From NCBI GenBank assembly GCA_049999805.1, contig JBNGIO010006220.1, positions 142,975-162,974 of the forward strand: DNA of 20,000 nucleotides, in the 5' to 3' direction. Below the pieces are notes generated by a model. The model did not search any database. It saw only the letters and a program-made list of their open reading frames with translations, and was not told the origin of the DNA. The translations under genes were made by a program, and so were the position numbers. How positions within the stretch are numbered: the first letter of the stretch is position 1; each line of letters starts with the position of its first letter. Below, in pieces: positions 1 through 20,000 of the stretch. The stretch comes from Folioceros fuciformis. Taxonomy: Eukaryota.

Positions 1-3000
1 ATGGTCAAGATGCTATCGCCTCTAAGCTCAAGCGCTTTTTCAGTGATCCGGAAAGATTCCCTGCTGACCAGTTGCTTGAGATGCAGAGCTTACCAGGTAA
101 CTCTTGTATGCAATCACACCTTCTGATACCGTAGTACGTAACTTATCTCCATAGCTACGGGTGGAGTTCAAGTTGGATAAGGTTGGCATGTGGATAGGTC
201 TGGATACACAGATGCTCTATGATGCGAAGGAGGCAGCCCTGGAGCGTGCTGCGGTCTCTGACTATGAACTGCGCCTTGCACGAGAAGATCTTAGAAGCTT
301 ACAGGATAAATTGGAGAAGCAGGCAGAAAAACTATCGATCCGCTCAACTCCTAGTGAGCGTAGTCTCTTGCAATGCTTTCAGTACTGTCGTGTTGCATTT
401 TGTTGAAGAATCTGAATTTCCACCTGCATGGCCCCCAAAGTCTAGTAACTGGGTAGCTGGGATGATTTGGTTTACTCTTACCGTCCTCTGTCCTGGCTCG
501 CAGAATCTGCGCCTGCAACTATAGCAGAAGCTGTGACAAACACAAACCGCCTGATTCTGCCAGGTCCACTGTTGGAAAACGAAAGACGGGATCTGAATTG
601 CGCAGTTAAGGAGTATCTCGTGACTTGTGGGTACAAGGTCACAGCAATGACATTTCTGGAAGAGGTATTGCCTGTTGCAACAATTGTATGCAGATTGGGT
701 TGCACCCAGCAGAGAACGTGTAAGACTGTTTGTGGCTATGAACAGGTTGAAGATCAAGATCTTGATGCATGGCAGAATCAGGTTGCACATGTGCCTGATG
801 CGCTTCGAAGATATTACTTGCAGTTCCTAAGTACTGGCACCGATCAGATTGAGGTATACTGCTACTATTTTCCGCTCTTGTGCCCCTAGTCTGGCTTGAA
901 CTGTTCTACATTTGCGACTTGTAGTTCAGTTTCTGTTCAACAGGGGTGCTGTCTTGGAAGCATGTTCTGTAACACACCCACTGCTGTTTAACTTCCAGCG
1001 TTGGGGTCCGGCAGAAAATGGGATTTCTGCAGGAGCAAAATGCAGCTTTGTCTTTAGGAAAGGAGGTTTTAGAGAAGGAGATGTCCTCTTTGAGTAAGCA
1101 GCTAGAAGCTTCAAAGAAAGAGTTCAAAGGGAAAGAGCAGCAGTCGAAGGAGAAAGATCAGCAGGCAAGGAACTGATTTGTGTTAGTGTGTCAGTGCAAG
1201 CTATAATGCGGTGACTCATCAGCCGTCTTGCTTACGCAGATACTGCACCTAACAGACTCTTTAGAACGTGCTATTCATGAAGTAAATGATCTCAGATTGG
1301 AAGTGACATCACTGAAGCTTGATCTTGAAAGGTCAAGATCAAGTCAAGCAAATGCAAGCCATGTTACTCCAACGCAAACGGAAGTTGAGGATGATGTCTC
1401 TCCGGCCAATAAAGCTGCGCTAAGACAAGAAATGCCTACCGAAGTGGAACAAGCCATCATGGGAAACCCTGCCCTTGACACACTTTCTGACAGTCCTATT
1501 CAGGAAATAGTGGAGCCAAAATGTCAGCAATGCACTGAGAAGCAAGCCGTGGTAAGCTCTGTTTGTTAAAACTGGCACCATCATCAAGCCCATCCTGGTG
1601 TTCATGATTGTCACTCAAGTTGGCATCTGATTTGTGTAGGAATTGGAGACGGTACAGATTCTTGCTGAAGCTTTACCCAAGATAGTGCCCTATGTGCTGA
1701 TCAACCATCGTGAGGTAATTGGAGGTTCTTTCGTTTGGTTGTGTGGCAAAGTCTTTGGATGTAGTACTCCAATCTTATCTTGATACCTGACGTTTGGCTG
1801 CAGGAGCTCCTTCCCCTTATGATGTGTGCTATTGAACGCCATCCTGATAGCATAGTCCGTGACTCTCTTACCCACCACCTCTTCAATTTAATCAAGCGTC
1901 CGGATGAGCTGCAGAGACGGATCATCATGGATGTAAGGCTATTTTTTGTTTGGAATGGTTTCCATGAGGGTCCAGTCTGTGTGAGAAAGGAAGAGAGGAT
2001 ATCAGATTTTGTTGCACAGAAAATTAATCATTTGTTGCTGAAATCACGCAAAACGTGTCCTGTGTTTGACAGGCTTGTGTTTCTTTGTCCAAGAGTCTTG
2101 GTGAGATGCGAACTGAAACAGAGTTGCTTCCTCAATGCTGGGAGCAGGTAATTGGTTATCTACACCTGAGGAGTACGTTATTCTTGCAATCTAGAGTATG
2201 TTGGCAGTCTACACTATTCTTGAATAGACCTCCTATGTGCCTGCGGGGCTACTTGCCAAAATGTTTGACACATCTCCCTGTCATGGTTAGATAAATCACA
2301 AGAATGAAGAACGGAGACTGCTTGTGGCACAATCCTGTGGGGAGCTTGGACAGTTTGTCAGGCCAGAGATGCGAACGTCATTAATTCTGTCCATTGTACA
2401 TCAACTTGTCGAGGATTCAGCTCCAATTGTCCGAGAAGCAGCAGCGAACAATCTGGCTCTTCTACTTCCACTTTTCTCCAACATGGAGAAGTATTTCAAG
2501 GTCAGCACTGCTAAGATATGCTGGGGAGCAAACATGGCGCAGGATATCTGACTCCAAAGATGGTTACAAAAGTAAGCACCTAGTGCTATGTAGAGTAGAT
2601 TGTTAGGATTCTGGGTCCCCCTAAGCTCAGGTTTGTAATCTAGTTAAATCATTGCATACCTCATGCGAGTCTCTGTGGGTTGCAGGTGGAAGAGCTCTTA
2701 TTTCAGCTGGTCTCTGATCCATCAGCGATTGTTGTGGAGACTACCCTCAAGAAACTTCTTCCTGCTGTATTAACATGGATGGAGTCCGGAAGAAAACCCC
2801 TACTGCCCCTACTCCGATCCCTTCTTGTGCACCTCTTAGGTCATGCGAAGGTGAGCTTTGTGGGGGTGGCGACCTCCCAAGGTTTTGGAAAGTATCACAA
2901 ACTTTGTCATGAGAGTTTTGTCTGACGTATGGAGTCTGAGATCACTGTTTCCTATGTTGGATGGCAGAGATGCCCTCCTGTATCAGGTGTAGAGAAATCT

Positions 3001-5235
3001 GCAGAAGCCCACCTACGAGTGTTGGGAGAGAAGGAGCGGTGGAGTATCGACGTTTTGTTGCAGATGTTGACTCAACTTTTGCCAGCCATACGAGACGCTG
3101 CTTTAACTAGCTCTCCCTTCAAGGATGCTGTACAGGAGGGCTCTCATGAATCTGGTTTTTCGGATGACCTTGTCAGATTGTTTGCTGAGTAAGTGGTGAT
3201 GTGTGGCGAAAACGTTTTGCTATATTTCCTCCGGCATCTGATGACGGCTCTTATCTCAGGACGGAGGTTGACTGGGTTATCCTTGATTGGATGTTTGAGG
3301 ACTGCTTTCCAGCTTTGCTGCAACTTGCTTGCATGTTACCAGCCAGGGAAGAGATTCTTCGCACACGACTTTGCAAGGTATGCCTGGTGTGCCAATTGAC
3401 CACTTAAAACGCGTTCATGGGGTTGTGTGGACTTTGTGCTCAATTGTTAAGAAGTTCCTTTGTTGGACCAGGTGCTAATTTCCATCGATTCATGTTTTGG
3501 AGGCTGCTATCATTCCACTATAGTTGTGCCGATTTTTCTTGCTGCCGTTGGTGATGATGTGGAGCCAAAGCATCTGTCGCCCAAGCTCGTCAGTCGAATC
3601 ACTGGTAAACACTGTTTTTTGTGGTGCTTGAAGACGATGCAGCCCAAGCTTCTTGATTCTGAATCGCCAAATACGTGCAGGCCTGAGACCGAGAACAGCA
3701 GCAGAAGAGCAGTTGGCTGGAATGTGTGTTCTTCCTTTGCTGCTAGCTGGAGTGCTCAGTGCGTCGAGTGTGCATCCGGAGTTCTTTGCCGTATACCTGA
3801 GAAATCTGATTTTGCAATCCACATTCAAGCATGGGGCTTGGAGAAGTTCACACTCTCCAGATCTTGTCGATGCTGTTAGATTTCTCTGGTAATTCCTGGT
3901 CTCTCTTTGTCGAACTGATACCAGGAATAATGACTTTGCTTGCTGCCACACGTACTAGCGTATGAATATGTGATGGAAAGGGGTATGACACCGGAACTCT
4001 TTACAGTTCTTTCAAGGATCAACATGGAGCTATAATGGGAGTTCTTTGGGACCTAGTTGTCAATGCAAATGCTCCTGTGAAGGTCACCGCCACAGTTATA
4101 TCAAGGGCATTGGTACGTGGATTGAGTGAGCCTCTCGGGATATGGACATGGAGAACTTCGATTCTGAGTGCTGCTTCTGAAATTCGGTGAATGACTCAGG
4201 TTGGGTATGCGGATCTGAAGCTGGTGACTCAGCAATTGTTGCCAGCGTTGGTGACTCTTGCTTCTGACCCAAACGTCGAAGTTAAGCATTCCAGTATCGA
4301 AGCGTTTGGATCTGTTGCTCAACATTTCAAGGAAGAGGCGGTATTGCAGGATGACTAACTATTCTAGATTTCCCGTTAAGCTTGTTGGCCTCTAGATTGA
4401 GTTTAACTCAGGTGGCTAGATGCAGGTGTTCAAAGTATTTACGGATCTTGCTGCTGAGCAGCGGTTTTGTTGGTATAAACTGCAGGTGGTCGACAAAATA
4501 CGTGTCCAGATGGATGCATTTCTGGAGGATGGATCACACGAAGCTGTTATCAAAGTAGTCCGAACATTTGCTGCCATTTTGCCCGTCTCGGCATCCAATC
4601 TGCGGGACTATATCCTTTTAAGCTTGGTTTTTTATTTGTCCAGCATCTCCTTTCAACTTTTGCGATGCCTATGGGTGAGGGTATTGTCCTTGACTGCGAG
4701 CACATCTGCTGCAGAAACTGCTTGTGTTGTCTTCTGCTGGAACACAGGCAGCATCGCTCATGCGACGCCGTGAAAGAGCTGATGCCTTCAGTGAAGCCAT
4801 TCGTGCACTCGATGCCACAGGTCCGTTGAAAATCTCTGCACACCTGTTGCAGTTGCGCAGAGCGTCGGATATGGCTGCTGACGAATATGCCGTGATTCAG
4901 ATCTTTCCCCCACCAGTGTCAAAGAGCTTCTCCTTCCCACAGTTCAGAATCTTCTTAAGGATTCTGATTCTCTGGATCCAGCACACAAAGAAGCTCTGGA
5001 GGTAATCTTGAAGGAAAGAACTGTGAACAGACTGGAATCCATCAGCAAAGTCATGACCATGGGAAGCCTATTTGGAGAAGGTGGATTTTTGAGCAAGAAA
5101 GAGCTTGGTGATGATACGCCCAGCCCAAACAGCCCGACACCCCCACAAGAGGCAGGCATGCTGAAGCGGATAATAAGAAACAACTACGGCGGAAATTTGT
5201 TCAGCAGGGCGAGTAGCACGACACCTGACCATTGA
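1..5235 (+). CDS. RELCH: RAB11-binding LisH/coiled-coil/HEAT-repeat protein (RELCH/KIAA1468 homologue), 5'-truncated, 20 exons in window
   Basis: Exons by manual splicing: <1-96, 198-353, 504-664, 746-853, 1015-1164, 1240-1551, 1640-1714, 1804-1932, 2073-2147, 2291-2500, 2686-2850, 2968-3188, 3260-3377, 3472-3604, 3681-3888, 4007-4112, 4200-4340, 4486-4609, 4704-4820, 4901-5235 (TGA). Phases are consistent and give about 1045 aa. Motifs characteristic of plant RELCH: KRFFSDPERFP, LisH-like ERRDLNCAVKEYLVTCGYKVTAMTF, LPKIVPYVLINHREELLPLMMCAIERHP, LFNLIKRPDELQRRIIMD, ELLPQCWEQINH, ERRLLVAQSCGEL, RRRERADAFSEAIRALDAT, LDPAHKEALE. Confidence 0.93.
1165..1239 (+). other. Probable GC-AG intron of RELCH gene
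   Basis: The coiled-coil exon reads ...KEKDQQ and then CAG|GCAAGG. An in-frame TGA follows 9 nt later with no GT before it. The phase-0 acceptor TTACGCAG|ATA resumes ILHLTDSLE. Confidence 0.65.
4610..4703 (+). other. U12-type (minor spliceosome) AT-AC intron in RELCH gene
   Basis: 5' site ATATCCTTT at 4610, branch site TCCTTGAC at 4687-4694, 3' site CAC| at 4703. Removal restores the frame LRD-Y-LLQKLLVLSS...RRRERADAF. Confidence 0.93.
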
Positions 5236-5520
5236 AATCATTTTGCACCAGCTCTGAATGATTTTTCATTAGCGGATAACGATTTTGGTGAACGTCTTTT
5301 GTATGCTATGGCCCCCTGCTGTTTATAGTATTGGTTAGTGAAGGTGCTTCCAGCACATTGCAGGTCAAAGTGACGTCTGGTGTCCCCGCGCGTCAACAAG
5401 TGGCCAGGGCTGTTGGCTACGCCGGCGAATAGTTACACCTCGCTTGTTACTAGCTCCTAACCACGTTCACGATTTGGGCATCCAAATTCTAGGATGGATA
5501 GTCACCTTGATTCTCTCAGC

Positions 5521-5722: not shown

Positions 5723-5926
5723 CCCATCGACGAGCACAGCATTGCCACCCATCGACGAGCACAGCATTGCCACCCATCGATGAGCACTACATTGCCACCC
5801 ATCGACGACCACTACATTGTCACCCATGGTGCAATCTAAGATGTTCTCCCATCAAAGCACACCACATTGCTACCCATGAAGGCACCACATTGCTACCCAT
5901 GAAGGCACCACATTGCTACCCATGAA
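5723..5926. repeat. Minisatellite: 4 x 25 bp (CCCATCGACGAGCACAGCATTGCCA) then 3 x 23 bp (GGCACCACATTGCTACCCATGAA)
   Basis: Directly visible tandem copies. Both unit types share a CATTGCYACCCAT core. Confidence 0.9.
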
Positions 5927-6030: not shown

Positions 6031-6201
6031 AAATATAGGCTCCTTCTGTATAGGGAGAATCCATATACTTTGTGCTCCAAGATGTCATGTTNNNNNNNNN
6101 NTCTGTATAGGGAGAATCCATATACTTTGTGCTCCAAGATGTCATGTTCTCAATGGTTAGAAAATATAGGCTCTCTGTATAGGGAGAATCCATATACTTT
6201 G
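6031..6201. repeat. ~72 bp tandem repeat spanning an assembly gap
   Basis: TCTGTATAGGGAGAATCCATATACTTTG occurs at 6045, 6102 and 6174. AAATATAGGCTC occurs at 6031 and 6162. Confidence 0.85.
6092..6101. other. Assembly gap (10 N)
   Basis: Run of 10 N. Confidence 1.
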
Positions 6202-6529: not shown

Positions 6530-6721
6530 TGGCCTTCTTTTGACAACATGTATCTATTGCTTTGCAAAGAGCATTAGTGGCCTTCTTTTGACAATCTGTA
6601 TCTATTGCTTTGCAAAGGGCATTGGTGGCCTTCTTTTGACAATCTGTATCTATTGCTTTGCAAAGGGCATTGGTAGCCTTCTTTTGACAACATGTATCTA
6701 TTGCTTTGCAAAGAGCATTGG
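6530..6721. repeat. Minisatellite, 4 x 48 bp
   Basis: Unit TGGCCTTCTTTTGACAA(CA/TC)TGTATCTATTGCTTTGCAAAG(A/G)GCATT(A/G)G, four near-identical copies. Confidence 0.95.
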
Positions 6722-7390: not shown

Positions 7391-7818
7391 TTCCATAGTA
7401 TAGAGTAAGTGCTTTGCAACCATTATCTAAAAAAAATTTCACCTCAAAATGTACATTACATCTCAATGTCAAAGGTTACAGCAATGTTTGGAGTTGTGGT
7501 AAGGAAGTGTTTTGAGGTAGAAACATTAAAATGTTTGAGGCAATGACTTGTGCTGTTTGAAACAATGTTTTTACCATCCTTTGGGTACAACATGGTTTGC
7601 AAGTCATATTCTCTTGATTTGCTATCGTAATTTGGTCCACCCCACGGAGGCCCAAGAAAAATAACATTTGCCTTCATATTAGGAGCGAGTTTGAAAAAAT
7701 CTCCAACCATAAATTCAATCCGATGTTCTACTCCATAAACTTTTGCATTATGCATTGCAATCCAATTTTTCTTGGGTTGATGTCGATTACAATAACTTCA
7801 TGACCTTGCATTGCAAAT
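7353..7818 (-). pseudogene. TGS1: Trimethylguanosine synthase (RNA cap hypermethylase) pseudogene fragment, C-terminal catalytic half
   Basis: Minus strand reads FAMQGHEVIVIDINPRKI, frameshift, AMHNAKVYGVEHRIEFMVGDFFKLAPNMKANVIFLGPPWGGPNY...YDLQTMLYPKDG, frameshift, KTLFQTAQVIASNILMFLPQN...QL, stop at 7476-7478, then FEVKFFLDNGCKALTLYYG. These match TGS1 motifs HNA.VYGV, FLSPPWGGP.Y, FLPRN and KA.T.Y.G. Two frameshifts, one premature stop, no introns. Confidence 0.88.
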
Positions 7819-8140: not shown

Positions 8141-8467
8141 GTACTCCGGTTAGGAATGACAAGTGTTAGACCTGTTCCCCATTAGTCATACTTAGATTAG
8201 GAATGACAATTGTTAGACCCATTCCCTATTAGTCGTACTCAGGTTAGGAATGTCAATGGTTAGACATGTTCCCCATTAGTCGTACTCATATTAGGAATGA
8301 CAATTATTAGACCTATTCCCCATTACTTGTACTCAGATTAGGAATGACAATTGTTAGACCCATTCCCCATTAGTCGTACTCAGATTAGGAGTGACAATTG
8401 TTAGACCCATTCCCCACTAGTGGTACTCAGATTAGGAATGACAATTGTTAAACCCATTCCTCATTAG
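8141..8467. repeat. Minisatellite, 7 x 47 bp
   Basis: Unit GTACTCAGATTAGGAATGACAATTGTTAGACCCATTCCCCATTAGTC, with copies starting at 8141, 8188, 8235, 8282, 8329, 8376 and 8423. Confidence 0.95.
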
Positions 8468-9810: not shown

Positions 9811-10092
9811 GTATATAAATATTTAAATTAATAAATTTAAATATAGAATAATAAATTTATTTATATTTCTTTTTTTAAAAGGTATGGTAATGATGCTCAT
9901 GGTAACTGCGAACCATTCAGGCCGCTTTGAAGAAATGAGTCTTATGATACTTTCAGAAAGGTCGTCTTCAATTCTCACAAACTATTGTGAAATACGTTCT
10001 CCATAGGCTAAACTCAAGACCACCATTTGCTAAGAGAACCGAAGTAGCTCTAGGAGTAGCTGGAGATGATGAATTGACCTGCAACAGTTCAT

Positions 10093-10737
10093 GTGAGGCC
10101 TAGGAGTAGACACAGCTAGTTCGATGGTGAGGCCCAGCCGTAGACACACTAGTTCGATGGTGAAGCCTAGGAGTAGACACAGCTAGTTCGATGGTGAGGC
10201 CTAGGAGTAGACAAAGCTAGTTCGATGGTGAGGCCTAATAGTAGACACACCTAGTTCCATGGTGAGGCCTAGGAGTAGACATACCTGGTTAGATGGTGAG
10301 GCCTAGTAGTAGACATAACTAGTTCCATGGTGAGGCCTAGCAGTAGACACAGCTAGTTCGATGGTGAGGCCTAGCAGTAGACACAGCTAGTTCGATGGTA
10401 AGGCCTAGCAGTAGACACAGCTAGTTCGATGGTAAGGCCTAGCAGTAGACACAGCTAGTTCGATGGTGAGGCCTAGCAGTAGACACAGCTAGTTCAATGG
10501 TGAGGCCTAGCAGTAGACACAGCTAGTTCGATGGTAAGGCCTAGCAGTAGACACAGTTAGTTCGATGGTGAGGCCTAGCAGTAGACACAGCTAGTTCGAT
10601 GGTGAGGCCTAGCAGTAGACACAGCTAGTTCAATGGTGAGGCCTAGCAGTAGACACAGCTAGTTCAATGGTGAGGCCTAGCAGTAGACACAGCTAGTTCG
10701 ATGGTGAGGCCTAGCAATGGACACAGCTAATTCTATG
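10093..10737. repeat. Minisatellite, 19 x 34 bp
   Basis: Unit GTGAGGCCTAGCAGTAGACACAGCTAGTTCGATG, head-to-tail with no spacers. One copy is 33 bp. Confidence 0.97.
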
Positions 10738-11188
10738 GTAAGCAAGGTTGCAGTGGTTGAGCTAGGGCATGTCATATATATGGCCTTGTTCTTAGGAGGT
10801 TGAAGCCTCTCTTCATATACAATCCAAAAACTTATTAAACCCCTTTCTAATTTTTGCTCGTTCACTTGCATCACATATGATCCAAAGATTTGGCCCTTCA
10901 GCTCTTACACACTGAAATCCAACATTTATCTTCTAGTTAAATGACCCATAAAACCCAAATTCTAATTTTCCTCTTCTTCACATGTATTACAAATTAAAAT
11001 ATCTATACAAAATTATTCCTAGTAAGACTCCACGACAAAGTTGGAGTTTGAAATCAATTTGTTAAATCCATATTTTCCTCTAGACCATCTTATATCATGG
11101 CCCTTCACCATTGGGAGACTAAAAATTGGTAGGTCAAACTATTTTGTGAACATCAAATCAAGGTTCAAAGGTTAAGTATTATAATGTT

Positions 11189-11193
<5 letters not shown>

Positions 11194-11223
<30 letters not shown>
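11194..11223. repeat. (AT)15 microsatellite
   Basis: Perfect AT dinucleotide run. Confidence 0.95.
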
Positions 11224-11225
<2 letters not shown>

Positions 11226-11645
11226 TGAATTAAAGTAAAACTTAGCATGCATAAGTTTTATAGGAGATAATCCTTATCCTAGAGATCTAGTGTATATACA
11301 TCAAGAAATATATATATGTTAAATTACATAAATAATTTATAAATGTATAAATATATGATATAAGAGTTAAGAAAATTTAATGATGAAGTTATAATATTAA
11401 AACAACATATCCTAATAACGTTCTTGGTATTACATGCAGACAGACGTACAGTCTCCACCATAAGTAAACAAGCAAATTGACACGCCAGAGATTAGTGTAC
11501 AATGGTTCAACGTACCCGTGTGGAACTGGGCTGCCTACTTTAGCTTCCTAAGTCACAGGGCAAAGAATTGTTGAATTTGTTCCAGGGGTTGGGTGAGGAG
11601 CCTGAAGTTGAGCTTGACCGTAATTGCAGTCCCCGAATCCTTTGG

Positions 11646-14600
11646 TCAGTAGGCAGCAATGACTTCACCTTTCATGCCGAGTGCAAGTGCCCCCAATTCC
11701 GCACTGTCCTCCATCTTCAAGCCGGGTAACAGTAACGCCCTAGAACCGACGTAGCAGCTCTGTCCGATCTCGCTGGCTTTGAATCCAACTTTTCCTCCTT
11801 CATACAGATGTCCGAAGACGAGAGCATTTCTGCCCACAGCAGTGCCAGCTCTGACTGTCAGCAGATCAGGGTTGAGAGTCAGAAGGGTGTCCATGTAGGC
11901 CACTCTTCCTGCAGAGTCCCCAATGTTTGCTCCAAGTAATTGTAGGTAGATTGAGCCAAGGAGAGAGCCTTTGCCGAGCTCTAGGAAGCTGTTGGACAGG
12001 AGCAGGTTGATTGCTTGCCATGTTGTGTCCCGTAGGGATGTGAAGCCCCACAGTGCGCTGGAACTGCCATCTCTGGTTCTTCCTACCAAGGCCCAACGGG
12101 AGGCGACACTGAATCCTGTGAAGAGGAGGCCGGACAGAAGATATGCTACAGGGAGCAGAGACAGCATCCAGGAAGGTCCTGCTCTTGCTCCGACGAAGGA
12201 GAGTGCGAGTAGTGAGGGATAGTAGGCAAGAGCAAACAGCGTGATGGGAATGAAAAGCTGGAGAAGAGGTTGCATCCAACGACATAGAGCTTGGTTCAGG
12301 ACTTTGCCAAGAGTCAGCACTTCCTGATCTGACGTCTGTTGTTCCATGTCGTGTGGTTTCTTCAAGCCGTCGGTTGGTCCGGCCCGGTCATGGGGTTCCG
12401 CGGTGCGTGTTAGAGCTGGCATCTGCTGGTACCTGCTGGGAGATATTTCAAGGTTCCCTCCCGACACTGCTGGACAAGCAGCGCCTCTCGATTGTTTCCG
12501 TTCTTGCTCCCGCGCCTCTGGAAGTTGCAGCATGACATCAGCTTGCTTAAGTAGCCTCTCCCAAGATGGAGGCAGCGGCTGTCCTGTTCGAAGATATTGA
12601 GCAATGCTATATGCCAGGGAGCGACCATGGTCAATAGAAGCATTTTCCAACGCTGTCTTAGCTGTGACCATATCAATGCTTCTTGTGCCATTTATGGGGT
12701 TGAATCGAAGACGCTCAGTAACCTCTCCATCCAAAATCTCAGTCAGGTGTACCATGCCCACGTCTGTATAATGGTAGGCAGCTTCGTCCCAAGGTTTGGT
12801 GCAGTCAAGCGCATCTTCATTCTCAGTCATGTCTTCTGAGACAGGACGCAGCTGAAGCTGGAAGACGTACTTCACTCCATCCGCAGACAGCAACCTCTTT
12901 CGAAAGTCGTCTGCCAAGAACCGGGGCGGACGAGTATCACTGGGACTTCGAGGAATTGCTCCGGTTTCGGGTGGAATGAAATCGAATGCCTCCACTTTTC
13001 CTTCGTCTTCGCCGAAACGCTCATCTGCTGGACGCATCCTGAACTTGACAAAGTACTCCTGCGAGCTTCCAGACACGCGAAAGAGCCTGGCCACATTGGA
13101 GTAGTAGTGCAGCTCAGCATAGGAATTAGGTAGTCGAAGAGAGTCCCATGATGCGATGCCAGACCGCGGATTCTTCTGCACAAAGGCCACCCTCTGCTCG
13201 TGGCTTTTCATCATGTAGTTGACGAAGTCCACCATGTTCCTGCAATTGAAAGCTCTCCCTGACTTCATTGTCAGATCAAGCATGCTCTGCTCAGCATCTG
13301 ATTCTGACCCGGGTCTCAGAAGTCTCAACGACGCTCCCCGTCCATCGCTTCTGGCATCGTCATCCCCACTCAGACTGTTGCTGTGGCGGATAATGACTCC
13401 ATAGGTCTTGCCAGGAGCGAAGACGTCATGCGCCTGGATGGTATCCGGAAGGTTGCTCAATATGGTCAAGGTGCCCTTTCCTGCCACTCCCAGACGGTGG
13501 AAGAATCTTGCATCCACGGACAGCGTCGTCTTGGCGATGTTCGCAGCTAGGTTCGCAACCAATTTCTTGTAGAGGGGATCCATCTCTCGGATTCGGAGGT
13601 CTTCATCGTTCACCTCTTGCTGTTTCTTGGATTTGGATGGTGCGTTGCCATCTGCAGCATTCTGGTATATCATCACGGGGTTTTCCACACCAACGTACAC
13701 GCCTCCTGCTTTCAGGACAGAGCCAGTAACTGCCACTGAATTTGCTCCGAGGAGAGCCCTGTCCTCCAGCTTCACTCCTGGCAAAAGAACACCCTGTGCC
13801 CCCACAATACATTTCGAACCCACCTCCACCCTGCCAAAATGCATAGAGTGCTTATATTTCGCCTGCTTCACAACAGTCTGGGTCACGGTGCTGGTGATGA
13901 TCTTTGCGAAGTCCCCAAGATGGGATTCATCTCCCAGCGTTAGCAGGTCAGGATCAAGCAAGGCATTGATTCCACGGATGGATGCCATGTTGCCTACCCT
14001 GGCCCCTAAGCTGCGCAGGTAGCACACCAGTGTTTGCGTCCCGGACAAGAACATGGTGAACTTCATGTGTGCAGCAGTTAGCAGGCGGTGCACCAGCCAG
14101 ACTCTGAAGCCCAGGTCCGAATTTACGGGCAGAGCTCCATCCTTGCTCGTTCTCTGGGAAATAGCATTGCCTACGAGGTGCCACTTGAACAGGCAGGTGA
14201 TGGCGCCCAGAGTGAAGCCGTAGACCAAGTAAGCAGCCCCTGAGCAAGCAACTATTAGCAAGGCATCCCTGGAGTTGGCAAACCTGTAGAGGAAGTTGAA
14301 GATGAGCTCGGAGTTCTGGAAAGCTAGGAGAGGTGACAGTCCCGCCATCGCCCATGGCAGAGTTGCTGCAACAGGAAAGCAGAAGAAACCAATCCGAACA
14401 GTGGAGGCAAGTCCTTTGAGTGGACTGCTGTCCTGTATGACCAAGAGCCTGGAGGTGAGCCAGAGAAAGGAGATGTAGGACACGATGGCGGAGACTGTGG
14501 ACACCAGTCCCACAACATACAATCCCCACAGATGCCTCAGCGCTATATGGTACTGGCCCCCCTTTTCAATTTTCACTCCCTGCATCATCAACGTTCAAGC

Positions 14601-17600
14601 AAATTTCAGATCATGGTGTGCTGTGTTCTGTGATCTAGCATCAAGATGGATGATACATACCGGTGTATTGGCAGCAACGTTAACCTGGTCGCCGCGATGC
14701 TTCTTGGCCACCTTTTCACCGATCTCTGTCCTTCCCAAGGCGGGAATGCTTGCTCCAGCGTCTAGGATGGTGCCCTGCTGCACCACTGCGTAAGGTCCGA
14801 CGACGGAACCAGTGCCGATTCGTATAGGTCGGAATCTGACGACCCCTCCCCGCACGTCATGGCTTTGGACGGTCGCACCCTCGCTGACGACAGCACCATT
14901 GCCAACATAGAGCAGGGAGGGATCTGTGATATCCGTACTGTCCAGAAATACATGCTTCCCAATCTGAGCTCCAAGCAGCCGGTACCAGCAGGAGAGGAAG
15001 ACGGTTCCTCGGAGATGGATTCCCACGACATGGTTGGAGGCGAAATCACAGAGACGATAGAGCACCCACCACTGCACATAATCCAAGGACCAGAGGGGAA
15101 TGGCTGTCTGGATGGAGTAGTTCGGCCTGAGCAAAGTGGTGGCGAAGAAGGAGATGCTGAGGGCAGTCAAGGCAAGGTAAGCAATCCAGGCCACAGGCAA
15201 GAGCAGTATGGAGATGAGGAGGGAGGAAAGCCGAGGCAAAGCTGCGTCTTCAGCAGTACCAGGGGTGTAGAGCAGCTTAGCGAGCTGCCCGTAAACGACG
15301 AAGGCCGGAAAGATGATCACAGATGCAATATACAGCAGGCCCAGGACCTGAAGGCACGTAATGACCAGCTTCCGTCTGGAAGAAGGCTCCAGTGCGGATG
15401 CCAGATCGGCATCCGGAATAAGCTCTGTCTCAATCTCCTCCTCAACCAGCCCTCTATCATACCCATCATGATCCAGAGCAGGAGCGTGTACGGCCACTAC
15501 AGGCACATGGGAGATGTGACCTTTGCTTGCTGCGGGAGTGATGGAGGCCTTGTTGAGCAGGGAGAGGGCCATGCTGCTGAGCTCGGAGATGGAACCCGCA
15601 GTGTAGACATCGATGGCCGCAATGTGGACTCCTAGAAACTCCGAAAGCTTCTGCGCTGCCCACACCACCCCAACAGAATCGATCCCGAACGACGTAAGAG
15701 CATCCGTGGTGGAAATCTCGTGGGTCTCCAATCCGGTCCTCTCTCCCACGAGAGTCACAAGATAATCTCGGATTTCCCTCTCGCTCTTCATCCGCCCAGA
15801 GGCTGCAGCTACTTCCACGGCAAGGGAGTTCACAGCCTTCCCATACCCACGCTCTCCGATAGCGACGCTCCCCTGTTCCCTGGGCTCCGGTTTCCCCTTC
15901 GAGCACGCCTCCTTGGCCAGGAGGCCATCGGCCATGTCCGCGAGCTCGGCGATGCATCCCGCGGTGTAGATGTCGATGGCCGCAATGTGGAGCCCCAGGA
16001 AATCCGATAGCTTGGACGCCGCCCACACTACGGCCACCGAATCGATGTTGTAGCTTGTGAAGCTGTGCGTCTCAGAGATTTCCGGTGCAGCAATCCCGGT
16101 CTTCTGTGCCAGAATCTCGCGCAAGAACGCTGTGATATCCGCCCTGCTGGGCCTTCCACGCCCATGCTCGCGGGCAGGTGCAGTCGCGGCATCGCTGGAA
16201 TCCAAAGCGTGGGTCCCGCGGCCAGCACCGGGGAGAGAGGAAACCTGCATGTTGATCGGGGCAGAGTCGCTTCTCCTCATCATCCTCGTCCTGCTCCTTG
16301 CTCTGGGACTCACCAGCACATTCGGCTTCGCAGTGACGAGAGTCCCGTTCAGGAATCTCTGGAGACATTCCAGACGCCGTATCTTCCCGGACGTGGTCTT
16401 GGCGATGGTTCTGGGCTTCACCAGATTGACGTGTGCCACCTCCACGCCGTGCTCTGCTGCCACAGCCGACTTGATCTTCCCGACCAGCTCCGGGTCGACG
16501 TACTTGTCATCCCGCACCTCCGTCACCACGACGATCCCCACATCGTCCGGGCCGGATCCCGCGGCGTCGCCGACGTTGAGAATCCTGTGCAGGGCCGACA
16601 CAGGAGCCCCGAAGGCGGCGCTGCAGCCGGGGCGGATCCCCGTGGTGCAGTTCTCCACCGTCTTCTCGATGTCTGAGGGGTAGATGTTGCGCCCGGCCAC
16701 GATGATGAGGTCCTTGATGCGTCCCGTGAGGAAGAGCATGTCACCAACCAGGCGACCGAGATCACCGGTGCGGAGAAACGTGCGCCCTGCTTGGCCCGCA
16801 GCGCTGCCGGCCACGGGTGGATGACTGCTCTTGACGACATTGTGGAACACCTCCTTGCTCAGCTCCTCCAGCCCCCAGTACCCTATCCCGGAGCTGGGGC
16901 TGCTCACCCAGATTTCCCCTTCCTTCCCCTCCGCCACTTCCTCCCCGGTTTCGGGATTCACAACCCTGATGTCCATGTCCTGGTCCCCCCGCTCCACGTA
17001 CCCGCAGCATACCCTGTTCTCCCAGTCCAGGTAAATCGGCCGCTGCTGCCCGTACGCGACGCAGACGAAGACGCTGTTCTCCGCAAGCCCGTATCCAGGA
17101 GCCACGACCTGCACGCACCATTCCAATTCAGGTGTCGGAATTCACAACTGCTGCTGCGGCAATGAAAATGGGGATTCCCGCCTTAGAGGTTCACCTGCTC
17201 TCGTAGGCCGGAAGGTCGGAATATGTCCAAGAATCGGGACACGGTCTGGTGGCGGACGGGCTCGGCAGAGATCATGATGAAGCGGAGGGAGGAGAGGTCG
17301 AAGGTGGGCACGGGCCGGCCGCTGCTTCTCAGCATTTCCATCCTTCGGATGGTGAGCTCGAAGGCAAAGTTGGGGCCGGCAGTGTGCGTGCCGCGGTAGG
17401 TGCTGAGGGCCTCCATCCACAATAAGGGCCTCTTGATGAAGGTGACGGGGGAGAAGAGGAGCGCCGTCCCTCCCGACACGAGGGCGGTGAAGAGGCCGCC
17501 GATGAGGCCCATATCATGGTACTGCGGGAGCCAGCTGACGAGAACCGTCCTGGAGCTGCTCTTGTAGTGCCGCCGCATGAGCTTCACGTTGTGGATGAGG

Positions 17601-20000
17601 CCTGCGTGGGTGATCATGACGCCCTTGGACTCCCCTGTGGATCCCGAAGTGAACTGGAGGAAGCATACATCTGCGGGATGCGGGGCCTCGAATTCGAACG
17701 TCTCTGCGGACTCCGACGAGGACTCAGAGCTGGAGTAGCCGTTGTCTCTGTCTCTGGGGCTGGTGCTCAGGCCTGGCTCGTCCAGGCTGCTGCTGCTGCC
17801 GCCTTCGCTACCGGACCTGAAGCTGCCGGAGCGGACCGAGTCGGAATTGAAGCTAGAGTTCCTTTTGGGCGAAGGCGGGGGCCGCAGAAACCTGAGGGAC
17901 CTGGGCGACATAGCCTGGGAGTCGGCGTCCGCCGGGAAAGAGGACCTGGTGCTGATCTGCCCGGGGCTGAGCTTGTCCAGGAGCCAGTTGGTCCACCTGG
18001 GCGCGGCCGTGCCGGAGCGCGCATTCCTGGTCCACATGTCTGTGTGATACCACGGCAGGTCCGGCCAGTGCGGGTCCTGGGAGCCCACCAGGCCCGAGGA
18101 CGTGATGCGGCTCTTGAGCATGCCTGCCTTGACGCCGATGTGGTAAGTGGATGTGGACAGAATGGCCTTAGCGGCGCAGGATTTGGCCACATTCTGCACC
18201 TTGAGCAGAGCCTGGGCGCTGCCCGTCGTCCCGGGGTCGGGCGGGATGAGCGGCACTGGTAACACCTGCGGCACCCACAGCACGAATTGGCCACGGAGTC
18301 AGGAGTGTGAGATTCAAGCTGGCTTCCACATTGTTGGAAGCAGGCAGGGCAGGCAGCTGGGGGTGAAGCGTCCATTACTCGAGCGCGGAGACAGCCGAAG
18401 AAGGCGTCCACGAAATCCAGGCCGGGCGGGTGCAGGAGCAAGACGCGGTCCCCGTACTTGAGCTTGGACCTGCTGGTGAGCAGGCGGTGCGCTACGATGG
18501 AGGCTCGCAGATTCAAGTCGGCGTAGGTTCTGGCGTCGGATTCCTTGCCCTGATCATCCAGCCACGTGTAGAGCACCTTATCCTTGGTCACTTCGTGTTT
18601 GGCAAAGAAATTGAGGTAAGCGTCCAGGGTGGGCAGGTCTGGGAACGTGATCCCAGGAGCTTCACTCAGCTCCTCGACAGCGTAGGCTGTGCCTGTGCGT
18701 GCCAAAATCCCACTGCGCCTCCCGCTCTCCACCTCAGGCTCACGCTCAGGTACTTGGATTAGCCTCTGCAAGAAGGAGCTGAAAAGAATGAGTAAAAATT
18801 GGTGCGAGGCGGCAGCCCAGACAGCCTTGGCTACAGCCCCAGCCTTGCCCAGACCACCACGCCCTGTCCTTTGTGTGTGGAAAGCAAAGGATCACCTTGA
18901 CATAGGGCAGAGTGAGGTGTGTAGAGCCGAAGTGTTGCGCGACTAAGCTGATGGAGAAGGCAGCATTTCTCTCGGTGAGCTCAAAAGCTAACAAGCCTCC
19001 AACGTAGTAGGTGTTATTCTGGCCTTGCAATCTGGTCATGTCGTCGTAGAAGCCAGCTTTCATATCTGCATCGGCATTGGGATTGGGATTGGCATTGGCA
19101 TTGGCCCAGTACCAGAATTCGGTTAGAACTTTGAAGTGGGAAGTGGCAAGCGAGGAGGAGATGCCGGCACCGTACTTGTACCCACCTTCACTCTGTACAT
19201 GCGGGAAGTAATTCCACTTGCGTTGCAAAATAAACTCTTCGACGGTGCCTCCGATTTTCTGCACATCTTCGTATACCAAGGCGGTGACTGTGTCCTGCAG
19301 GATTTGTGCATTCCCGTAGGACCAAAACAGGAAAACGTCTGTATCGGGGAAAAATCTTTGCATGGCCACAGGGTGGCCTATCGTGTCGGGGTCGCGGATG
19401 TATTGTTTGAAATGATAAAAGCCAGCTGGAAGGTGCTCTAGACCTTGGATTCTAACCACCGTCGTGTAGTACTCCACTGTGCGCACCTTGGAGAAGCAGA
19501 TGCGTTCTGCTAGCGTCCATCGCAGCAATGGCTCGGCACCGGCTGACGCTGTTTCTGTTTCGGCTGCTGCATCCACATGGTCCGTCCGGCGGGGAGGAAA
19601 TGCCGTCACTCATTCAGTCTGAGACCTCGCTGTCGTTTGGACAGAAGTGCAATGCAAACGCAAATGCAAGCAGCCATCAGCGAATAGGGAGCAGGGAGAA
19701 AGGGATCACTCACTCGCAGACGGCGGCGAGGTCGGGGATCGATATGTGGGATTGGTGCGGAACGGGAGAGCCCCGGTGACGATGATCTTGTCGAACTCCA
19801 GGTCCAGCAGCGACGATTCCCCGGCTTCGGCTTCGGCGGGGGCGACCAGGACGGTAACAGGGCCGGTGTCCGGTCGGCAGATGCGGGTCACCCTGGTGTT
19901 GCAACGGACATCGGAGAGCGAGGCTGCCAGCTTGCGCCACAAGCTGGTGTAGCCGCCTTTCACCCGCGCGATCCTGCCGAGCACCGAGCTCCGATTGAAT
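11646..20000 (-). CDS. Multidomain NRPS-like lipid enzyme: FAD oxidoreductase/fatty-acid-isomerase-like + FAAL-like adenylation + 2 ACP + TM/beta-helix repeats + catalase-related AOS-like haem domain (5'-truncated)
   Basis: Exons on minus strand: >20000-19714, ~19566-19186 (acceptor uncertain, several in-phase CAGs), 19065-18896, 18765-18379, 18265-17195, 17108-14685, 14579-11646 (TGA). All introns are GT-AG with consistent phases, giving about 2550 aa in the window. This joins ORFs 19706-19984, 18746-19609, 17767-18771, 17183-18283, 14595-17126 and 11646-14591. Confidence 0.9.
12590..13515 (-). other. Domain: catalase-related haem enzyme (allene oxide synthase / hydroperoxide lyase-like)
   Basis: RFFHRLG (distal His 13497-13499), IIRHSN...DDDARSDGRGASLR, LR.P.SY.EL.YYS, FQLQL, PWDE, FNP, RSLAY (proximal Tyr 12609-12611). 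Confidence 0.88.
15557..16149 (-). other. Domains: two tandem phosphopantetheine carrier (ACP/PCP) domains
   Basis: SFTSYNIDSVAVV (Ser codon 16038-16040) and ALTSFGIDSVGVV (Ser codon 15675-15677), each followed by KLS.FLG.HIAAID.YTAG.I.EL. Confidence 0.88.
16345..18645 (-). other. Domain: fatty acyl-AMP ligase-like adenylation domain
   Basis: GDRVLLLHPPGLDFVDAFFGCL, FLQFTSGSTGESKG (P-loop), SWLPQYHDMGLIGG, GPNFAFEL, AEPV, PGYGLAE, FLRTGDLG, GRIKDLII, KTTSGKIRR. Confidence 0.93.
18896..20000 (-). other. Domain: FAD-dependent oxidoreductase, C-terminal part (amine-oxidase fold, PUFA-isomerase-like)
   Basis: KGGYTSLWRKLA, FDKIIVTG, QRKWNYFPHVQSE|DMKAGFYDDMTRLQGQNNTYYVGGLLAFEL. Confidence 0.8.

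Follow-up and report, generated by a model that had tools for sequence, protein, structure and literature searches.

The window, a stretch of 20,000 nucleotides of Folioceros fuciformis DNA, contains a single gene on the minus strand at positions 11646–20000, which extends past the window edge at 20000 (Table 1). The window portion consists of seven exons, and the exon model yields 2558 amino acids without a stop codon, in line with the first-pass annotation, which had expected more than 2500 amino acids after splicing. Comparison with homologues places about 195 further N-terminal residues, which hold the FAD-binding Rossmann part, upstream of the window edge. The full multidomain protein of about 2750 amino acids is made from one gene and one spliced mRNA. 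The earlier proposal that six open reading frames form one protein was right about the single spliced protein but not about the number of pieces, which is seven exons. Intron 2 had been concealed within the open reading frame 18746..19609 because it is in frame and contains no stop; it appears as a 39-residue gap against both the Selaginella homologue P0005 and the polyunsaturated-fatty-acid isomerase PAI (PDB 2b9w). An AT/GC hexamer microsatellite is included in this intron.

Table 1. Features of the gene in the window, listed in the direction of transcription.
Feature	Position	Strand	Basis
Exon 1 (partial), middle of PAI-like FAD (amine-oxidase family) domain	19714..20000	-	Pfam Amino_oxidase E 1.7e-4; tblastn to P0001 and P0005; X1 contig piece
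Intron 1, 147 nt, GT..AG	19567..19713	-	Predicted; spliced out in X1 contig
Exon 2, FAD domain (continuation)	19186..19566	-	Alignment to homologues; X1 contig
Intron 2, 120 nt, in frame, stop-free	19066..19185	-	Absent from X1 contig
Exon 3, C-terminal end of PAI-like FAD domain	18896..19065	-	Matches 2b9w residues 377-423; X1 contig
Intron 3, 130 nt	18766..18895	-	Spliced out in X1 and X2 contigs
Exon 4, linker and FAAL N-terminal start	18379..18765	-	Pfam AMP-binding and NCBIfam FAAL matches
Intron 4, 113 nt	18266..18378	-	Predicted; spliced out in X1 contig
Exon 5, FAAL N-terminal domain core with P-loop motif	17195..18265	-	AMP-binding E 4e-33; FAALs are top PDB matches
Ser-rich insert, 92 aa, lineage-specific, within exon 5	17720-17995	-	Retained in mRNA: contig continuous here
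Intron 5, 86 nt	17109..17194	-	Predicted; spliced out in X1 contig
Exon 6	14661..17108	-	FadD32 family E 9e-47; PP-binding E 8e-18; TIGR02353 E 1e-20; Hexapep; TM-like segments
FAAL C-terminal part, exon 6	to ~16329	-	
ACP1, exon 6	~15933-16127	-	
ACP2, exon 6	~15567-15782	-	
Two TM helices and LbH unit 1, exon 6	LbH unit 1 ~14679-15386	-	
Intron 6, 81 nt, in frame	14580..14660	-	Spliced out in X1 contig and in relative's X2 contig
TM cluster and LbH unit 2, exon 7 start	13653..14555	-	Hexapep and acetyltransferase-family matches; AF2 helices then beta-helix; unit HMM
Catalase-fold haem domain, cAOS-like, exon-7 residues ~326-690	12510..13604	-	phmmer and Foldseek vs 1u5u
Two TM helices and LbH unit 3, exon 7 end	11649..12290	-	TIGR02353 stretch 751-980 of ORF; TM segments; AF2; unit HMM
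Stop codon	11646-11648	-	
3′ untranslated region	11377..11645	-	X1 contig record 1, spanning 11377-12513

The evidence for one mRNA consists of assembled contigs, not single long reads. A 7540-nt contig assembled from the public run X1 showed 0 mismatches to the window, spanned 12484..20000 and about 700 nt further, and carried splice junctions exactly at all six predicted introns, leaving the reading frame continuous, as the proposal of a single polypeptide and transcript demands. The 3′ end was covered by another X1 contig. In a relative represented in run X2, the 81-nt and 130-nt introns were likewise spliced. The in-frame TGA (14595–14597), which had divided the two largest open reading frames, sits within intron 6 and is removed with it in contigs of both runs. 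There is also evidence for purifying selection on the coding frame: 29 of the 40 differences listed from the X2 relative fall at third codon positions (p = 5e-7). That the gene is an annotation artefact, consisting of two or more separate genes (e.g. with the 14595 stop closing one of them) or of a decaying pseudogene, is very improbable, since the genomic stop, the many short C-terminal-only gene models in angiosperm annotations, the loose end at 12484 and a depth figure of the 3′ contig differing from that of the long contig are set against splicing in two runs, one contig across all six introns, a stop-free spliced frame, the third-position bias and full-length orthologues annotated in dozens of plants.

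The domain order is PAI-like FAD domain, FAAL, two ACPs, a unit of two transmembrane (TM) helices plus left-handed beta-helix (LbH), a TM cluster plus LbH, a cAOS-like haem domain and a last unit of two TM helices plus LbH. As had been noted from the sequence, no condensation or ketosynthase family was detected in a Pfam search at E <= 0.01. Domain E-values reached down to 1e-47 and 76 full-length relatives were found (E <= 2.3e-85); the arrangement is therefore not a chance pattern. Orthologues of about 2300 amino acids occur from lycophytes to angiosperms and bear out the earlier expectation of similar uncharacterised proteins in land plants. This family has been conserved throughout the vascular land plants. 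The architecture itself is not new, as a 2021 eLife paper printed this layout for the same protein family ("FAAL between HemY and catalase, function unknown"; PMC8460268). The text passages of that paper mention neither the Pls-type TM plus hexapeptide module nor the likeness of the catalase domain to cAOS nor any bacterial protein sharing this domain set, all of which are noted here. Literature searches found no biochemical data on any family member.

The FAD domain had been described as isomerase-like, and its match to PAI of Propionibacterium acnes agrees with this. Residues 16–440 of Selaginella P0005 align with residues 2–422 of 2b9w (E 2.5e-25), so that the family FAD domain matches PAI end to end; no other flavoprotein occurs among the best 60 of 116 PDB matches to P0005. 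The part encoded in the window matches the C-terminal third of PAI (E 1.2e-7), while the N-terminal third lies beyond the window. The likeness is one of overall alignment. PAI is a free-standing, soluble enzyme acting on free linoleic acid, whereas the plant domain is fused to a FAAL–ACP machine.

The adenylation domain is of the FAAL type, as first read: FAALs such as FadD32, FadD28, FadD23, 7r7e, 3kxw and 3pbk lead its matches in NCBIfam and the PDB. The two expected carrier domains were recovered as two PP-binding stretches (Pfam), each with a DS motif.

The C-terminal module is homologous to that of epsilon-poly-L-lysine synthetase and the Pls/PosA family (TIGR02353; E 4e-39 and 1e-20). 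Common to both are adenylation and carrier domains followed by three tandem units of a TM pair and a left-handed beta-helix, and both are without a condensation or thioesterase domain. An HMM of the unit, built from the window, found three units in all 11 bacterial Pls-family proteins examined and in four of five plant proteins; the fifth protein is split. The Pls-type layout proposed earlier thus holds as regards homology of the three units, but the plant proteins score 130–187 bits with TIGR02353, below its curated cut-off of 423, and no one-to-one orthology emerged between the three plant units and Pls units 1–3. The loader is an amino-acid A domain in Pls/PosA and a FAAL with two ACPs in the plant protein, which further differs by its N-terminal FAD domain and by a 365-amino-acid haem domain that separates unit 2 from the TM pair of unit 3.

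Coral AOS (cAOS; 1u5u) was the top match of this haem domain both by sequence (phmmer E 1.1e-23) and by fold (Foldseek E 4.7e-18, TM 0.76), so the domain is AOS-like by relationship, as had been suggested. The Pfam Catalase score of 23.2 lies under the gathering score of 25. At about 25% identity to cAOS, the plant domain keeps the proximal Tyr, the Arg349 equivalent, three haem-coordinating Arg and the distal His. R358, H361, R398, R653, Y657 and R664 are invariant in 49 plant sequences, as are the equivalents of cAOS R64, H67, R102, Y353 and R360 (49/49). From the published list of seven cAOS active-site residues (PMC5617202), five are kept, while Thr66 is replaced by Phe and Asn137 by Lys. 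Both replacements are invariant in plants, and the distal pocket differs from those of cAOS and catalase; bacterial relatives have Thr at the Asn137 position. The reaction may therefore differ from that of cAOS, and judging from these residues AOS or HPL chemistry should not be taken for granted. The coral domain is fused to a lipoxygenase, whereas the plant polypeptide has none and embeds its haem domain in a membrane module.

Bacterial proteins (for example from Archangium gephyra, Lentzea and Kutzneria; representatives P0131, P0139, P0148) unite the same four families, FAD, FAAL, ACP and haem, in a single polypeptide. For every plant domain, the counterpart in these proteins is the nearest relative outside plants: between P0005 and P0131, identities are 32% for FAD (2e-61), 37% for FAAL (6e-106) and 33% for haem (1.5e-47). 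The FAD, FAAL and haem domains of the plant family each bear a specific relationship to their bacterial counterparts. The bacterial order is FAAL, haem, FAD, ACP, against FAD, FAAL, ACP ... haem in plants; the bacterial proteins are soluble by composition and have a thioesterase, hydrolase or reductase for release where plants have TM+LbH units. Loci whose single protein product combines FAAL, catalase-like, amine-oxidase, ACP and TE domains were found in Archangium, Lentzea, Kutzneria, Amycolatopsis and Streptomyces, and literature searches returned no publications on such proteins. Some bacterial relatives contain a P450 alongside or replacing the catalase-like domain. Among 45 catalase-like relatives scanned, 32 contained Amino_oxidase, in each case directly adjoining the catalase-like domain, four Lipoxygenase and one animal haem peroxidase plus PLAT.

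The best explanation of this architecture, to which we give an even chance, is fatty-acid loading, modification by paired FAD and haem domains and Pls-type off-loading at the membrane; such an assembly line is plausible. As proposed earlier, it might be independent of the CYP74 route. The FAAL would adenylate a long-chain, probably unsaturated, fatty acid and load it as a thioester onto the ACPs in cis, without passing through CoA. The double-bond system of this acyl chain would then be the joint target of the FAD and haem domains. PAI abstracts a bis-allylic hydride from linoleate; the flavin domain might take the place of the lipoxygenase in coral AOS–LOX fusions and supply the haem domain with an activated or peroxidic intermediate. 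This "LOX-equivalent" role is an analogy only, because PAI uses fatty acid in free form and generates no peroxide. Finally, the Pls-type module, in place of the bacterial thioesterase, would off-load the modified acyl chain by transferring it to an acceptor amine or hydroxyl group.

Alternatively, with loading and off-loading unchanged, the FAD domain could be a true oxidase or desaturase, re-oxidised by O2 with release of H2O2, which the catalase-fold domain would remove or use as a peroxidase or peroxygenase without hydroperoxide isomerisation. We consider this rather unlikely. Members of the amine-oxidase family, to which the FAD domain belongs, commonly produce H2O2, and the frequent adjacency of the two domains, the two changed distal positions and a structural match to the small catalase-related Mycobacterium protein 3e4w would suit such a pair. 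However, the FAD domain has its closest solved relative in an isomerase, which carries out no net redox reaction; true catalases score far lower by sequence (E 0.1), and cAOS, the nearest relative of the haem domain, is unable to scavenge H2O2 (PMC5617202, Introduction).

It is less probable still that the substrate is not a fatty acid, with the protein acting as a Pls-like poly(amino acid) or other small-acid ligase, the FAAL likeness being superficial and the redox domains tailoring an amine-containing monomer. Homology of the off-loading module to that of amino-acid polymerases and the "amine oxidase" Pfam family of the N-terminal domain point this way, but P0005 reached only 154.5 bits with the amino-acid adenylation model TIGR01733 (cut-off 317) against about 300–330 bits with FAAL models, the top PDB matches are all FAALs, and the FAD and haem domains are both nearest to polyunsaturated-fatty-acid enzymes.

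The bacterial proteins give the family a new context, in which the catalase-like domain is joined to an FAD domain where corals join it to a lipoxygenase.

The gene model for the minus strand was built from stop-to-stop ORFs, Pfam and NCBIfam scans, tblastn with full-length homologues and enumeration of splice donors and acceptors. Domain scans of this strand revealed an amine-oxidase-type FAD piece, AMP-binding/FAAL pieces, two PP-binding stretches, a weak Catalase match and, at three places, hexapeptide and TIGR02353 matches, the latter being the model of the epsilon-poly-L-lysine-synthetase-type (Pls/PosA) family. Joining seven exons gives a frame open over 2558 codons, and approximately 195 N-terminal residues of the homologues fall beyond the window end. 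The first-pass annotation had joined six separately listed ORFs into one multidomain protein, and this observation was confirmed overall with two corrections to the exon structure. Its ORF 18746..19609 hides a stop-free, in-frame intron of 120 nt (19066-19185). The TGA at 14595-14597 that separated two of its ORFs is real, but lies inside an in-frame intron of 81 nt (14580-14660).

Exons of the megaenzyme gene within the window
Feature	Coordinates	Strand	Evidence
Exon 1	20000..19714	-	tblastn and splice-site enumeration
Exon 2	19566..19186	-	tblastn and splice-site enumeration
Exon 3	19065..18896	-	tblastn and splice-site enumeration
Exon 4	18765..18379	-	tblastn and splice-site enumeration
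Exon 5	18265..17195	-	tblastn and splice-site enumeration
Exon 6	17108..14661	-	tblastn and splice-site enumeration
Exon 7	14579..11649, stop 11646-11648	-	tblastn and splice-site enumeration

Assembled contigs from two public sequencing runs, X1 and X2, whose labelling as RNA is itself a guess, were aligned to positions 11000-20000. An X1 contig of 7540 nt matches the window with 0 mismatches, spans 12484 to 20000 and extends approximately 700 nt beyond. This contig skips exactly the six predicted introns, which measure 81, 86, 113, 130, 120 and 147 nt and each have GT..AG ends in the coding orientation, and the 81-nt and 130-nt introns are also skipped in run X2, which stems from a relative. 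Being spliced, the contigs of both runs cannot derive from the genomic locus. The earlier proposal of one polypeptide encoded by one transcript therefore holds at the level of an assembled contig, as the X1 contig bridges the six window introns. A second X1 contig spans 11377-12513, which places the 3′ UTR at approximately 270 nt. An insert of 92 Ser/Pro-rich residues (17720-17995) just before the FAAL P-loop motif is kept in the long X1 contig and hence is coding; it is probably disordered, and at least 7 of the 9 homologues examined for it lack it. In 11676-12258 the X2 relative shows 40 listed base differences from the window, of which 29 are at third codon positions (p = 5e-7), indicating that the last left-handed beta-helix (LbH) unit is under purifying selection. 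The depth figure of the 3′ contig in X1 is 82 vs 18 for the long contig, and a loose end of another contig lies at 12484. A variant or paralogue could account for this, as could a shorter transcript from the 3′ end that shares the last LbH unit; contig depths cannot rank these explanations.

Elsewhere in the window, a further gene of several exons occupies 1-5300 of the plus strand; it is unrelated to the megaenzyme gene and has a LisH motif in an ORF piece at 449-889 and a HEAT repeat at 2291-2551; we take it to resemble RELCH-type LisH/HEAT-repeat proteins. On the minus strand, an isolated ORF of 113 aa (7456-7797) in an AT-rich stretch (33% GC) matches the RNA cap guanine-N2 methyltransferase family PF09445 (E 4e-16); it may represent a single exon from a TGS1-like gene, or else a fragment. 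Intergenic tandem arrays are found at 5723-5926, 6530-6721, 8141-8467 and 10086-10739 (periods 25, 23, 48 and 47; a 34-bp unit occurs 19 times), and a short N run near 6040 marks an assembly gap.

The part of the FAD domain inside the window matches the polyunsaturated fatty acid (PUFA) isomerase of Propionibacterium acnes, PAI (PDB 2b9w), with E 1.2e-7. The complete FAD domain of the full-length Selaginella homologue P0005 (residues 16-440) aligns end to end with 2b9w (2-422; E 2.5e-25), the sole flavoprotein among the best 60 of the 116 PDB matches of P0005. Upstream of the window lies the GxGxxG Rossmann motif, which is seen in the consensus of 48 homologues and as NAD_binding_8 in the homologues.

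For the adenylation domain, the top NCBIfam families were FadD32 and FAAL models. All top PDB chains were FAALs, with E values down to 1.5e-91 for P0005, and CoA ligases began at approximately 1e-20. By these comparisons the domain resembles FAALs more than it does acyl-CoA ligases or NRPS A domains. P0005 scored 154.5 bits against the amino-acid adenylation model TIGR01733 (cut-off 317.4) and approximately 300-330 bits against the FAAL models. It missed the bacterial FAAL cut-offs (PRK05850, 329 bits vs 775; FadD32, 299 vs 975), which belong to equivalog or subfamily models of bacterial proteins. The FAAL-specific insertion/helix and a blocked CoA pocket have been reported for plant FAAL-like domains (Patil et al., 2021, PMC8460268). 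Directly downstream of the FAAL, on the same polypeptide, are two PP-binding domains, both with the Ser of the DS motif. Selaginella and Cryptomeria homologues likewise have two carrier domains, those of Adiantum and Malus one.

The best sequence match of the haem domain (exon-7 residues approximately 326-690) was coral allene oxide synthase, cAOS (PDB 1u5u; E 1.1e-23). With an AlphaFold (AF2) model, Foldseek again placed 1u5u at the top (E 4.7e-18, TM 0.76), followed by many catalases, so that the domain is predicted to adopt the catalase core fold. The Pfam Catalase model PF00199 gave 23.2 bits for the window vs a gathering score of 25, and 24.2-36.7 bits for homologues. The Introduction of PMC5617202 lists Arg64, Thr66, His67, Arg102, Asn137, Tyr353 and Arg360 as cAOS residues. 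R64, R102, R360, H67 and Y353 correspond to R358, R398, R664, H361 and Y657 in exon-7 numbering, and these five are invariant in the window and all 48 plant homologues compared (49/49 sequences). Since the proximal Tyr, the haem-coordinating Arg residues and the distal His are kept, haem binding and a distal base are very likely. In contrast, F360 and K439 stand in place of the distal T66 and N137 of cAOS without variation across the 49 plant sequences, and the reaction need not be that of an allene oxide synthase. A second difference concerns the partner domain: coral cAOS is fused with a lipoxygenase, whereas the Pfam scan gave no Lipoxygenase match for the window protein or for the plant homologues. 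When short homologues were sought with the haem domain alone, only plant fragments and short models were recovered, and no free-standing relatives. Many angiosperm models of 375-607 aa (P0078-P0099) comprise just the catalase-like part, in some cases together with the last LbH unit, and some are automatically named 'linolenate 9R-lipoxygenase-like' or 'y4iK-like'. Truncated annotation or genuine short isoforms may explain them.

Hydrophobic segments resembling transmembrane (TM) helices form three clusters, one before each beta-helix region, and Hexapep and TIGR02353 matches occur on all three TM+LbH units. In the AF2 model of exon 7 (mean pLDDT 78), helices are followed by a predicted beta-helix, the catalase-like domain, a disordered linker, two long helices and a second beta-helix. 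The arrangement of a carrier domain and then three tandem, TM-flanked LbH units is that of Pls/PosA proteins, and as in these the window protein contains neither Condensation nor Thioesterase families in the Pfam scan. It differs from them in that, judged by the TIGR01733 score of P0005, an amino-acid-type adenylation domain is missing. The curated TIGR02353 cut-off of 423.1 bits was not reached by the window pieces (134.5 and 73.6) or by the full-length plant proteins P0005 (129.6) and P0001 (186.7), compared with 583.9 bits for the bacterial control P0181. An HMM made from the three units of the window detected three units in all 11 bacterial Pls-family proteins searched (approximately 1300-1430 aa) and in four of five homologues from plants; the remaining one is split. 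Motifs are common to the TM+LbH units; a catalytic His kept across all LbH units was not seen among those compared. A one-to-one correspondence of plant LbH units 1-3 with Pls units 1-3 was also considered, and mean BLAST scores gave no such pattern: bacterial unit 1 was the best-scoring partner for all plant units.

A search for longer relatives, in which the 7999 best word-sharing candidates were scored, gave 77 proteins, 76 of them at E <= 2.3e-85 and most of 1800-2560 aa. Wherever the source is named, it is a land plant (ferns, Selaginella, Cryptomeria, Amborella, many eudicots, Typha and Dioscorea), and the proteins are called 'uncharacterized' or 'Carrier domain-containing'. Poplar, Medicago and tomato are examples of transformable species with the gene. 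Plant homologues share 39-49% identity with exon 7. The ESM Atlas yielded the family's own streptophyte cluster (score 0.98) and otherwise weak leads. No Brassicaceae or Poaceae occur among the named matches despite heavy sequencing of these families; with 7999 candidates scored, this proves nothing and hints only weakly at lineage loss or split annotation. A 2026 survey (PMC12820801) mentions NRPS-like FAAL clusters of Populus and Selaginella on bioinformatic grounds only. Full-text literature searches found no functional work on the plant family or on its bacterial relatives, and the supplements and figures of PMC8460268 and PMC12820801 may list members. The layout itself, with the FAAL between HemY and catalase, had already been published as an orphan (Patil et al., 2021, PMC8460268), so that what is new is the link to bacteria and the question of function.

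With exon 7 as query, exhaustive HMMER searching yielded 1387 matches at E <= 1e-3, and 45 catalase-like matches (14 at E <= 1e-5, 31 at E <= 1e-10) were scanned with Pfam. In 32 of the 45, Amino_oxidase adjoins the catalase-like domain, usually together with ACP and a thioesterase (TE) or other release domain and often with an N-terminal FAAL; the typical order in these proteins is FAAL, haem, FAD, ACP, TE (approximately 2300 aa). Lipoxygenase was the partner in four proteins of coral or cyanobacterial type, and animal haem peroxidase plus PLAT in one. Neither partner was present in the remaining eight (three with AMP-binding only, one with Catalase only, four with no family). When 13 large proteins were aligned to named bacterial genomes, 265 of 282 candidate stretches were confirmed. 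The best 80 of these lie in Archangium, Lentzea, Kutzneria, Amycolatopsis, Streptomyces, Micromonospora and others, with up to 93% identity across the whole protein in Archangium. Comparison of P0005 with P0131, a bacterial protein of this type, gave 32% identity for the FAD domain (2e-61), 37% for the FAAL (6e-106) and 33% for the haem domain (1.5e-47), each match being much stronger than that to PAI or cAOS. These separate strong matches, together with the recurring domain sets, indicate that FAAL, haem, FAD and ACP form a recurrent unit. The two groups differ in release: bacterial relatives carry a thioesterase where the plant proteins have the Pls-type membrane module.

Variants of the set were also observed. 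At locus L040 (9704-13036) of Kutzneria buriramensis the order is FAD-ACP-TE-P450, with a C-terminal P450 instead of the N-terminal catalase-like domain, and protein P0199 has both haem domains, catalase-like and P450. The neighbourhoods of two bacterial loci, L003 and L040, contain P450 and neither a lipoxygenase nor an informative partner. A distant metagenomic relative of 3108 aa (P0077) has similar parts in a different order: catalase-like, FAD, condensation domain, FAD amine-oxidase, carrier domain and hexapeptide units.

The first-pass annotation had interpreted the protein as a self-contained, membrane-bound pathway for a modified fatty acid, which our data support in part. The architecture, the single mRNA, the conservation of the family and the kept haem ligands stand as observations. 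In the mechanism we propose, the FAAL would load a fatty acid onto the ACPs, the flavin and haem domains would act as a pair on an unsaturated acyl chain, and the TM+LbH module would transfer this chain at a membrane. In bacteria, as here, the haem domain is joined to a PAI-like flavin domain where corals join it to lipoxygenase, and by analogy this suggests that the flavin domain supplies the substrate of the haem domain. Read jointly, these features might describe a lipoxygenase-independent, carrier-bound oxylipin pathway of land plants in one membrane enzyme. The PAI-like domain would replace lipoxygenase and feed an activated or peroxidic PUFA chain to the cAOS-type haem domain, a pairing also kept in bacteria, which would be the probable source of the domain set. 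The Pls-type module would polymerise or transfer oxygenated acyl units across or at the membrane, to give a lipid polyester, a polyamide or an acylated acceptor. Taken in all its parts, this reading is improbable; if true, it would reveal a way of making an extracellular lipid polymer or signal that has hitherto gone unrecognised.

The main competing explanation keeps the two domains as partners: the flavin domain would be an H2O2-producing oxidase and the haem domain would handle the peroxide. A non-lipid substrate is unlikely, given an adenylation domain whose nearest structures are FAALs, and a split-gene artefact is likewise unlikely with all six window introns bridged by a single spliced contig.

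The proposed acyl-processing enzyme is among the largest conserved land-plant enzymes without a known product. It unites three chemistries characterised only elsewhere, namely bacterial FAAL loading, Pls-type off-loading at a membrane and the chemistry of a coral-type catalase-fold haem domain and a bacterial PUFA-isomerase-type flavin domain. The present analysis adds a verified gene model, evidence for a single spliced mRNA, the status of the haem active site and the link to bacteria. By virtue of this link, 'function unknown' becomes a set of assayable questions: fatty-acid loading, haem/flavin turnover of PUFA or hydroperoxides, and the acceptor. Should the product be a new oxylipin or lipid polymer, a pathway would be added to plant lipid biology; if not, the family is a well-defined orphan.
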